64,000 nucleotides of DNA from Bacteroidia bacterium (GTDB lineage Bacteria; Bacteroidota; Bacteroidia; J057; JADKCL01), in assembly GCA_020635905.1 (NCBI GenBank), contig JACJYV010000006.1, positions 24,060 through 88,059 of the forward strand. Direction: 5' to 3'. The notes under the pieces were generated by a model. That model ran no database searches and had not been told where the DNA came from. It was given only the letters and a program-made list of their open reading frames with translations. Shown piece after piece: positions 16,701 through 19,201 of the stretch. Positions within the stretch are counted from its first letter, which is position 1. The number at the start of each line of letters is the position of its first letter. A program made the translations under genes and the position numbers.

Positions 16701-18367
16701 GGCTGGTGGGTTCGCCCGATGTGCCTGAAGTGGCTTTCTCACCCGTCGAGTTCGATCCCGACAAATTCGTCTCTGACATGACCAAGGAGCCCGATGACTT
16801 TGGTGCGGACGGCCCTGGGGGCGATCAGGAGCAGCAGGGTGAATGGACCGACGCAGGTGGCGGCGAAAATCAGCTGGAAGGCGATCCGCAGGCTCCCACC
16901 GCCGAAGGCGGGGGGCAGCCCCAGGAAGATCTTTCCAAGCTTTCATCCGAAGAAAAATACATGCGGGCCCTGGGCGAGATCGGTGAAATTGCCGAAGGAT
17001 GTAACACCAAGCCCGTGCCCGACGCAGTGCTGCGCACCCGTTGCAACGCCATCAAATCCAAATATGGCATCAACCAGGTGACCCTGCGCAACCGCCAGAA
17101 AGATTCCATCGAAATTTACGTTCAGCACGGATCGCAAAACAACCGCGACAACGTCATCAAGTGCAAAGTCATTTCCGAGCACGAGCGTGACCTGCAGTTC
17201 CAGAAAGCCGTGGACGATCTGAACAAAATGCTGGAAGTATTCGGCGCACCCGAAACCGGAGCCGTCACCCGCAGCCAGATCACCACCGCCGCCAAAGAAG
17301 TGGACATTGCCCACGAAGTGATCGTCGATACCGAGGTCCGCGACCAGGGCCAGGATTGGGTGGTCTTCGGCGACATTGAAGAAACGAAGCGGAAAATGAC
17401 GCAGAAGCCGAAGGCTGAGTTGTTGGGAGTTGAAGATGGGACTTCTGAGACTTCACCAAGCTCGGAGGAAAGCTATTTAATCAACGAAAACGAAGGAACA
17501 AATAATGGGGAATTAACTGTTGAAACTACAATGTCTCAGGTCGTCTCATTCTACATGAATGGTGCAGATCATGAAATTACCATTACTGATCAAATGGGTG
17601 AATTGGAGACATTAATGGCCTCCAACATTCAAAAAACAATTACTACCAAAATTGCAAATCAAAAACGATCTACGCAACATTTGATCAATGCATCCACCGA
17701 TCCCGCTGATATCGCCCACTATCAGAGTTTACTTACTATGCTTACAAACGCAGAAAGTCAGTATAATACTGAACGCTCTCAGGCAAAATCCAATTATGAT
17801 GCGAAAATTGCTGCCGGCCTTGATAGAAATGATCAATTAAGATCACTAAGAAATAAATACCTCAAAGCCGCACAAAGAATTGGGGAAAAATTAGCGGAAA
17901 TTGGGGATTTATTTGGAATCAAAGACCTTGAAACAATGGAAGCCCATGTGGCAATTGAAATGTTCAATACAGCAAAAAGAGAACTGGAAAAATCCCTCAA
18001 CAAATCAGTTGAAGGAGGTGATGGGCATAATAATACAGCTGCAGCTGCCGAGCAACTAGGATGGGTTCATTCAAGTGGAGCAACTCATGATACCCGTCTT
18101 GGAATTGAGTTGGTGCGCCTGAACGAGGCTAAATCAAAAATTGATGTTCTCAATGCTAAATTTGGAACCCTGATTGCTGATCATATTTATGATGAGATTA
18201 GAGACCTGATTGGTGATTGTAACCTAGCCTTGGGAAGTCCCCACCAGTATCTGGTATACAACAGATTCAGAGACAAAAGAAACCTTTACATGCTATTCAG
18301 AGCAAATCCTGCGACCGGTTTCTCCGGGTGGGATACACTTTCGGAAGCAGATTTCAGAAGACTTTAA
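13778..18367 (+). CDS. DUF4157 (eCIS core domain) polymorphic toxin/effector with variable C-terminal tip
   Basis: DUF4157 at ~14490-14705 ([15 protein letters not shown]...[12 protein letters not shown]...[10 protein letters not shown]); QxK/VQ linkers; no signal peptide; abrupt shift to AT-rich codons at ~17400; small AT-rich gene 9 bp downstream. Confidence 0.85.
13910..14140 (+). repeat. Intragenic 33-bp tandem repeat, 7 units, encoding Q(M/Q)K(G/S)(E/A)EEEES(L/V)
   Basis: Read directly in DNA and protein; units differ mostly at synonymous positions; further dispersed units follow to ~14430 and ~14950. Confidence 0.95.
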
Positions 18368-18376
18368 GATTATTTC

Positions 18377-19201
18377 ATGAATAACTTCAGATTGCATTTA
18401 TTAGAGGCGAAAGGGCAATATGTCAACGGAAATATTGCTGAATTTTTCAATGTTCTGAACAGTTATTTCCTGAAAAATCATGGTACAGTTTTCTTTGATA
18501 ATTATTCAGACCCAATTATTCCTGACCAAAATCAAACTATATCTCAGTATGTTTGGAAATTGCTGAAGGAAGGTGTCAACATTAAAATTCCATTGCGCGT
18601 TTTGTTTGGCGAGTGGATGAATGCAGACCCATCACAATATTGGCTTTATTGGCTCTACGTAGGAGATTTAGATGAATATTTACTCTCATTTGATCCCAAT
18701 GATGAGGGGGATCTAAACAGAAAGGGTATATTAGCTACAATATTAACGTTAATACAAAAAGGGGAAATTGTAACCGATGACGAGAATCATTTTTGGTTAA
18801 ATAGGCCCATCCTGAACTTGAGTGAATTTTCAGAGTCTCCGGCAGCCTTTTATGGAATTGATGATGATCTGAGAGAAATGGTTCCCAAAACTCTGAAGGA
18901 AAGGTCTGGGAATTTTCTGGAAATCCTCGCTGAAGAAAGTCCGGAAGATTACGTTTATTGGTATTTAAAGTATGAATACCTTGATCCCATTCTTGAAAAC
19001 CGGATCAAAAAATTTCGATGGGATATGGTTCAAAAAATGTACCCCGAATTCTTGAATAATCTGATTATCGCTTTATATAACTTCAAAGAATTATCTAGCA
19101 ATCAAAGGAAATCTTCCTTTATTCAACCTTTCGCACCAAAAATTACTAAACCAGATATTTGGATTGAAAAAGAAATTAGTAACCTAAAAAAGCTATTGTA
19201 G
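18377..19201 (+). CDS. Putative cognate immunity protein of the DUF4157 toxin
   Basis: 274 aa, AT-rich, aromatic/acidic, starts 9 bp after the toxin stop; no recognisable family. Confidence 0.65.
   Translation: MNNFRLHLLEAKGQYVNGNIAEFFNVLNSYFLKNHGTVFFDNYSDPIIPDQNQTISQYVWKLLKEGVNIKIPLRVLFGEWMNADPSQYWLYWLYVGDLDEYLLSFDPNDEGDLNRKGILATILTLIQKGEIVTDDENHFWLNRPILNLSEFSESPAAFYGIDDDLREMVPKTLKERSGNFLEILAEESPEDYVYWYLKYEYLDPILENRIKKFRWDMVQKMYPEFLNNLIIALYNFKELSSNQRKSSFIQPFAPKITKPDIWIEKEISNLKKLL

Follow-up and report, generated by a model that had tools for sequence, protein, structure and literature searches.

Rhs, CdiA-CT/CdiI and MafB are polymorphic toxins, a class in which displaced tips and orphan immunity genes occur. 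In 2012, Zhang and coworkers reportedly dealt with polymorphic toxin systems and with the 'PVC-metallopeptidase'. The domain that formerly bore this name is now called DUF4157 (PMC8213781); it stands at the N-terminus of proteins that continue through a long spacer to a C-terminal toxin and for which known immunity pairs are rare (PMC8213781, PMC11297309). EATs, such as EAT14, are DUF4157-bearing toxins associated with extracellular contractile injection systems (eCISs) and have been described by Geller et al. in 2021 (PMC8213781) and by Danov et al. in 2024 (PMC11297309). Most of the predicted DUF4157 toxins of eCISs have no annotated effector domain, and the missing neighbouring immunity genes are an acknowledged puzzle (PMC8213781, PMC11297309). 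Here we analyse a gene for a DUF4157 protein, along with the gene that follows it, in a 64,000-nucleotide stretch of DNA from a Bacteroidia bacterium (assembly GCA_020635905.1, contig JACJYV010000006.1, positions 24,060 to 88,059). We call this whole stretch the window, and coordinates are window coordinates unless a contig or locus is named.

The locus shares several properties with the Rhs, CdiA-CT and MafB systems, including a conserved carrier, a sharp junction, a drop in composition within the cassette, an immunity-type gene directly downstream and an orphan remnant further on. It differs from them in its carrier and presumed delivery machine, and in having no Rhs/YD, VENN or PT-HINT junction motif. 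The boundary in the window carrier follows ...KPKAE, and many of the tips found on this carrier open with a β-meander module.

Like the EATs, the window protein combines an N-terminal DUF4157 domain containing HExxH with a very long spacer and a presumed C-terminal effector, and it comes from a genome with many eCIS loci and DUF4157 genes. Unlike the EATs, it has a C-terminal domain that falls in no annotated family, it lies away from an injector operon, and it is accompanied by an adjacent conserved immunity-type gene, which is exceptional by the accounts given in PMC8213781 and PMC11297309. The AlgoCIS cargos Cgo1 and Cgo2 of Algoriphagus machipongonensis (PMC8894135) also come from the Bacteroidota and are built of a disordered N-terminus (probable in the window protein), DUF4157 and a variable C-terminus; Cgo2, at 1228 aa, is of comparable size, and the likeness of both to the window protein is one of layout. 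For these cargos, the disordered N-terminal domain is needed for loading (bioRxiv 10.64898/2026.05.27.728243). The architecture as such is already known. What is new in the window is a rare unannotated tip family, a partner family equally without fold relatives in the PDB, and a β-meander module at the tip boundary that is shared with other carriers.

A sharp in-frame junction between carrier and tip

Residues are numbered here from the TTG codon at 13754, which opens the frame (1537 aa); subtracting 8 gives the numbering from the ATG at 13778. The latter is most likely the gene start, because homology to a paralog (see below) begins exactly there.

The initial annotation placed an abrupt change in base composition near 17400–17430, within one reading frame, and attributed it to a recombination junction beyond which the last ~320 aa had been swapped. 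To locate the change, we fitted a single change point to the G+C content of third codon positions (GC3) across the open reading frame (ORF) at 13754–18367. The break falls at codon 1224 (nt 17426), inside the interval named beforehand, with a GC3 of 0.651 before it, 0.329 after it and the frame unchanged. In the host genome (8.5 Mb, 49.7% GC), background GC3 is 0.577 ± 0.074, as measured on the 4128 open frames that run to 300 codons or more. Ranked among these frames, the tip is at the 1st percentile and the downstream gene, with a GC3 of 0.349, at roughly the 1.5th; the body reaches the 87th.

The genome contains a second copy of the gene, which encodes 1861 aa on the minus strand of contig C24 (478242–472657). 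DNA identity between the copies is 94.9% over window positions 13916–17418 (C24:478242–474575). When the two are aligned base by base, the last shared base is nt 17419, corresponding to aa 1222 (...TQKPKAE), and nothing aligns beyond it. In the 1214 shared codons, 151 synonymous and 11 non-synonymous differences are evenly distributed, which argues that both copies have been kept under strong purifying selection since the duplication and that the window copy is no decaying remnant. The paralog comparison shows directly that the composition break is a real recombination junction, as had been proposed. The swap itself also stands, with its length adjusted to an exact tail of 315 aa (aa 1223–1537).

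In the C24 paralog, the tail is 639 aa long (locus L025:9860–11776, minus strand). A second complete DUF4157 domain opens it, and ~450 aa of unrecognised sequence come after; the arrangement resembles an in-frame fusion of an entire shorter DUF4157 effector at the identical junction.

The C-terminal end of the carrier as a toxin slot

The carrier body (aa 420–1222) has at least 222 homologs of ~0.85–1.9 thousand residues, nearly all of them DUF4157 proteins. Those with an organism name come from the Bacteroidota, including Tenacibaculum, Aquimarina, Polaribacter, Lewinellaceae and others. We retrieved 119 of these homologs for analysis of the boundary. Homology to the window protein stops at aa 1200–1229 in 60 of the 119, after which come 200–750 unrelated residues. 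Seven carrier homologs were scanned with Pfam, and six of them carry a C-terminal Endonuclea_NS_2, Ntox15, AHH, LHH, AID/APOBEC-like deaminase or Tox-REase-7 domain. Thus, the proposal that the window protein is a carrier with a toxin tip is borne out to the extent that genuine toxin domains occupy the same slot in homologous carriers.

The same-carrier proteins of Tenacibaculum, Aquimarina, Polaribacter and other bacteria resemble the window protein in the body, at 31–56% identity, and in the position of the boundary at aa ~1200–1229. Their tips are recognisable nucleases or deaminases, whereas the window tip is unrelated to these in hidden Markov model (HMM) searches except for the shared pre-toxin module. 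A conserved N-terminal carrier with unrelated C-terminal ends, as seen here in both the paralog and the orthologs, is how polymorphic toxin carriers are classically recognised, and these comparisons indicate that the C-terminal slot is a toxin slot.

A rare tip family with an invariant core

An HMMER search of 1.84 billion representative proteins yielded 28 relatives of the tip at E ≤ 1e-3, with identities of 24–39% (52% for one fragment of 46 residues). The match is C-terminal in every one of the 28. The family is 255 aa long and is borne by DUF4157 proteins, by giant tape-measure-like or apolipoprotein-like proteins, and by short proteins that may be fragments; in P0005 and P0016, it ends tape-measure-like proteins of ~1600 aa that lack DUF4157. 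A profile built without the window sequence matched the window tip at E 2e-45. Among 40 relatives of the host genome, the tip was found in one, at 29% identity.

The tip features quoted in the initial annotation, namely a motif ending in LMAS, a helical stretch and a His-containing end (GHNN..., within GDGHNN...), are all present in the translation. Its statement that the tip belongs to no recognisable toxin family also held, both in sequence and in predicted structure: no family was found for the tip in Pfam, NCBIfam, PHROGs or PADLOC, none was common to the 18 family members scanned, and searches of the PDB by sequence or profile returned nothing credible. We modelled the tip with AlphaFold2 (AF2) from an alignment of 18 sequences (pLDDT 84, pTM 0.72). 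The model consists of a β-meander, three long hydrophilic helices and a C-terminal part that is likewise helical, and its best Foldseek matches had E values of 1.1 against the PDB and 0.3 against BFVD, with TM scores below 0.25.

Two candidate matches to the tip were rejected. BrxC, in PADLOC, scored 15.8 bits. The only PDB hit of the tip-family profile was the EnvZ DHp H-box (E 4e-5), over 54 residues around 'M.G.SH.L'. We regard this as a chance resemblance because AF2 confidently gives β-strands at this position and because the module recurs as a β-meander in other carriers.

Conservation was computed over 29 tip sequences that are <90% identical to each other. S1290, K1413, D1423, A1429, A1432, E1433, H1445 and L1500 are invariant, H1273, D1391, G1424, C1489 and P1496 nearly so, and the window copy retains every invariant residue. 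Most of these positions fall in aa ~1391–1520, where the family shows the motifs K, GDGH.N.A.AAE, H.TR and DC..AL..P..YL.

The β-meander has a wider distribution. With its His and Ser kept, it stands directly after the body and before unrelated C-termini in 21 of the 119 carrier homologs, and in metagenome loci L041 and L045 it occurs twice in tandem before the helical part. This distribution places H1273 and S1290 in a general pre-toxin module between body and tip; that the module serves processing or hand-over is speculation. The first ~35 residues of the tip, including the ...LMAS motif, are probably not part of the toxic core, and the specific toxin core probably comprises aa ~1391–1520. 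The tip as a whole is hydrophilic and has no membrane segment, and therefore pore formation is unlikely.

A partner gene that accompanies the tip

The tip gene ends with a TAA stop at 18365–18367, and nine bases (GATTATTTC) separate it from the ATG at 18377, as annotated. The 274-aa ORF that starts there ends at 19201 and is in the same reading frame as the tip gene. Used alone, its product found no relative in a word-indexed search of 5.8 billion proteins. Genomic position proved decisive. We examined ten fetched tip loci, five from genomes and five from metagenomes. The genome loci belong to Microcoleus, a Microscilla, a Cyclobacteriaceae metagenome-assembled genome (MAG), a Bacteroidota MAG and a high-GC 'proteobacterium' MAG. 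At all ten loci, as in the window (11/11), the next gene on the same strand is a homologous gene encoding 257–310 aa, with a spacing that ranges from a 4-nt overlap to a gap of ~140 nt. The loci span three phyla. A gene adjacent to and downstream of the tip that co-varies with it is what a polymorphic toxin system leads one to expect, and these data are in line with the initial proposal that the downstream gene is cognate to the tip.

Profiles of the partner family made without the window protein recovered the product of 18377–19201, over its full length, as the top match in the 8.5-Mb genome (E 7e-13 with six sequences, 7e-11 with thirteen). In a large protein collection, the partner profile found only seven further members, none of them annotated. 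Members of the family are 15–21% identical to each other. The AF2 model of the partner is all-α (pLDDT 82, pTM 0.81) and found no fold match in the PDB (best Foldseek E 1.3). Sequence searches of the PDB gave no match, Pfam and NCBIfam gave no family for the partner, known immunity families such as Imm*, SUKH and SMI1_KNR4 included, and no family was common to 14 members scanned.

At locus L018, the partner gene is duplicated in tandem. In the window, a second ORF on the same strand (23294–23851) is the second-best match to the partner profile in the genome, with a genome-wide E of 7e-7. A tandem duplicate and an orphan copy of this kind are what immunity genes commonly show.

Relation to the injection systems of the genome

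PF13699 (eCIS_core, DUF4157) is the one Pfam domain found in the ORF at 13754–18367, with 89.4 bits against a cut-off of 22. A hit to OMP_b-brl in the body was dismissed, at 18 bits against a cut-off of 28.7. The N-terminal leader has an isoelectric point of 4.2 and a grand average of hydropathy of –1.24, and contains two families of repeats, D1 and D2. Seven tandem 33-bp units at 13883–14293, along with dispersed copies, give rise to acidic repeats, and their number is unequal in the window gene and the C24 paralog (indels at aa 62–88). Upstream of the ATG, the sole likeness between the two copies is TAnnTTTG, a motif of the Bacteroidetes –7 type that lies ~20 nt upstream in both and may serve as the –7 promoter element.

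The genome has 29 matches to PF13699 and ten tail-tube genes (PF06841) in four loci, and it encodes eCIS particle genes together with a loading AAA+ ATPase. The C24 paralog lies ~8 kb past an injector operon that encodes a sheath, a spike and an AAA+ ATPase. A distance of ten genes or so from an eCIS operon is one mark of eCIS cargos; the paralog lies within it, and the window gene does not. At locus L021, an AAA ATPase gene and another DUF4157 gene come before the gene that bears the tip. We assign the window protein to eCIS use because of its DUF4157 marker and the position of its paralog. Two leucine-rich-repeat genes of low GC, encoding 426 and 618 aa, are oriented convergently toward the C24 paralog.

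Proposed mode of action and alternative explanations

Taken as a whole, the locus probably encodes a polymorphic eCIS cargo toxin with a foreign AT-rich cassette of tip and antidote, a reading to which we assign a probability of roughly 0.78. The junction, the modular slot, the rarity and unannotated state of both families, and the order of tip then partner across phyla can be read directly from the alignments and searches described above; the remaining steps are conditional. The product of 13778–18367 would serve as cargo toxin for the eCISs of the host genome, which are phage-tail-like injectors. Its parts would be, in order, an acidic disordered leader, the DUF4157/eCIS_core domain, a body of ~800 aa and a C-terminal slot for interchangeable toxins. 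In the window copy, recombination joined a foreign AT-rich cassette in frame at nt 17419/17420; with it came a linker, the β-meander module, a stalk of helices, a helical core of ~130 aa that falls in no described family, and the partner gene. By analogy with the AlgoCIS cargos, the leader would mediate loading, by an Afp15/Alg15-type AAA+ ATPase, into the product of one of the four injector loci. In the target cell, the C-terminal core would be released or exposed and may act as an enzyme in the cytoplasm, with an active site formed from the invariant Lys1413, Asp1423, Glu1433 and His1445. The 274-aa product of 18377–19201 would bind and block this core, protecting the producer and its kin. 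The partner is predicted to be cytoplasmic, which in turn suggests a cytoplasmic target for the tip.

We hold weakly to the idea that the substrate is a nucleic acid, and that the core is possibly a metal-dependent hydrolase; we would sooner expect this to prove wrong than right. The idea derives from the recognisable tips on this carrier, which are mostly nucleases or a deaminase, from the cytoplasmic partner, and from the nature of the invariant residues (Lys, Asp, Glu and His). 'Metal-dependent' in particular is guesswork prompted by the invariant Asp, Glu and His. There is also a fuller version, which is possible but which we do not quite expect to hold in all its parts. In it, the core at aa ~1391–1520 would represent an undescribed enzymatic toxin fold and the partner an undescribed immunity fold, together making one of the few strictly conserved eCIS toxin/immunity pairs, distributed over Bacteroidota, Cyanobacteria and a high-GC lineage; the injectors would be used for interbacterial antagonism; and the β-meander would be a processing or hand-over element of many DUF4157 cargos.

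Several observations weigh against the interpretation as a cargo toxin with its antidote. There is no tube gene on the contig of the window (C26), and the window copy is not beside injector genes. The activity of the tip is a guess, since it has no fold or family match, and the long charged helices predicted for it are unusual for a compact enzyme. One homolog, P0097, keeps the GDGH...AAE motif and continues with a different C-terminus of 310 aa; the extent of the catalytic unit is uncertain for this reason, and the motif might be scaffold rather than active site. Finally, His1425 of the GDGH motif appears not to be essential because it is replaced by Met in a subgroup of tip homologs.

Type VI effectors have adaptor proteins, and on this model the swapped cassette could be real and the 274-aa protein, rather than an antidote, a cognate chaperone or adaptor that holds the tip in an unfolded or stable state and hands it to the loading ATPase, in which case the tip need not harm its producer. 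Strict co-occurrence, after all, proves partnership and not protection, and the partner is modelled as an all-α repeat-like protein that matches no known immunity fold. Moreover, most antibacterial eCIS toxins have no immunity genes (PMC8213781), and chaperone-like factors for eCIS toxins have been the subject of speculation (PMC11297309). However, a place directly behind the toxin, the tandem duplicate at L018 and the toxin-less orphan at 23294–23851 are hallmarks of immunity genes, and a partner that diverges as fast as the tip fits with binding that determines specificity. We consider a chaperone or adaptor unlikely.

We give a little less credence still to the possibility that the tip is no toxin at all and forms a structural or targeting end, such as a coiled coil that contacts the tube, the tape measure or a receptor, and is exchanged between carriers on grounds unrelated to killing. 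A structure predicted to consist mostly of long hydrophilic helices, with no enzyme-like fold match, would suit such a role, as would the presence of the tip on the giant tape-measure-like or apolipoprotein-like proteins P0005 and P0016 and an N-terminal module that is common to different tips. Yet homologous carriers have nucleases and a deaminase in this slot, and seven polar residues are invariant or nearly so across 29 diverse sequences, suggesting an active site. Nor would a structural end readily account for a cytoplasmic partner gene that is dedicated to the tip and diverges along with it.

The notion that the composition change marks no junction, and that the window gene is a decaying duplicate with an end made AT-rich by relaxed selection or amino-acid bias, draws on the distance of this copy from injector operons and its proximity to an IS66 element, but is refuted: paralog identity ends within one codon, the shift is carried by GC3 and not by amino-acid composition, the ORF is intact, the body shows ~14 synonymous changes per non-synonymous one, and the tip keeps all its invariant residues and is matched strongly by a profile made without it.

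With the reading as toxin and antidote preferred, tip and partner form a clean, testable pair: a 255-aa family with few invariant residues and a dedicated partner at every locus examined. If this reading is true, the pair would contribute a previously unseen fold of each kind, toxin and immunity, and would argue that these injectors act against bacteria in environmental Bacteroidota and Cyanobacteria. The defined junction and the pre-toxin module mark where heterologous payloads might be grafted onto carriers of this family in basic studies of cargo loading.

Features of the locus and its surroundings

Table 1. Positions of the carrier gene, its parts and the partner-family genes in the window (aa, residues numbered from TTG 13754 unless a length is given)
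Feature	Position	Strand	Remarks
Complete DUF4157/eCIS_core polymorphic toxin gene (putative)	13778..18367	+	1529 aa from ATG 13778; frame open from TTG 13754
Acidic N-terminal region, probably disordered; candidate loading sequence	13778..14497	+	Based on composition, 33-bp tandem repeats and analogy to AlgoCIS
eCIS_core (DUF4157) domain	14498..14710	+	aa 249–319; HExxH motif intact in translation
Conserved carrier body	15011..17419	+	aa 420–1222; GC3 ~0.65; 97% aa identity to the C24 paralog
Recombination junction	17419..17420	+	Last base in common with the paralog, then first base of the AT-rich cassette
Low-complexity Ser/Glu-rich linker	17420..17536	+	aa 1223–1261; outside the stretch matched by tip homologs
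Three-stranded β-meander, putative pre-toxin module	17537..17638	+	aa ~1262–1295; F.M.GE.H.L ... MAS; H1273, S1290; AF2 strands, pLDDT 83–91
Three long hydrophilic helices (predicted)	17639..17923	+	aa ~1296–1390; AF2 helices H44–61, H65–101, H106–135, pLDDT ~90–97
Family-specific C-terminal helical core, presumed toxic part	17924..18313	+	aa ~1391–1520; conservation in 29 sequences
Cognate immunity-type gene (putative)	18377..19201	+	274 aa; all-α (predicted), acidic, no signal peptide or membrane segment
Orphan partial paralog of the partner family	23294..23851	+	185 aa; N-terminal third only, profile positions 5–100 of 287

The neighbours of the locus in the window include a type IX secretion system-sorted M43 peptidase, carB and fatty-acid oxidation genes, and because of these genes we regard the window as Bacteroidota chromosome. 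No injector core genes were found among the window ORFs scanned. In three relatives from the same family, the region upstream of carB has no genes in common with the window.

Downstream of the pair, the AT-rich block continues. Four low-GC ORFs on the same strand, at 19346–19978 (P0003), 22812–23225, 23867–24343 and 24345–25058, gave no match in Pfam, PHROGs or PADLOC and have no paralog in the genome. For 24345–25058 in particular, Pfam hmmscan at E ≤ 0.01 returned no SMI1/KNR4 domain. Inside the block lies an intact IS66-family element (20054–22743) with tnpA, tnpB, tnpC and a 135-aa ORF at 22303–22710. Its termini are inverted repeats, GTAAGCACCCGGC(T/C)AACCCCA, and it is flanked by an 8-bp target duplication without mismatches, ATGCCAAT. 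Contigs C1, C7 and C12 carry at least four further copies of the element, at 98.6–100% identity. Just upstream of carB, the last ~2 kb of AT-rich ORFs (23294–25058) are flanked by a 67-nt direct repeat (23249–23315 and 25261–25327; 81% identity), which may mark how the distal part of the block was added.

Further along the window, two low-GC genes encode AAA_21 (AbiEii-type) ATPases, at 28175–29954 and 33870–35102, and one of them overlaps a 148-aa partner. These look like defence-island genes, unrelated to the toxin locus.

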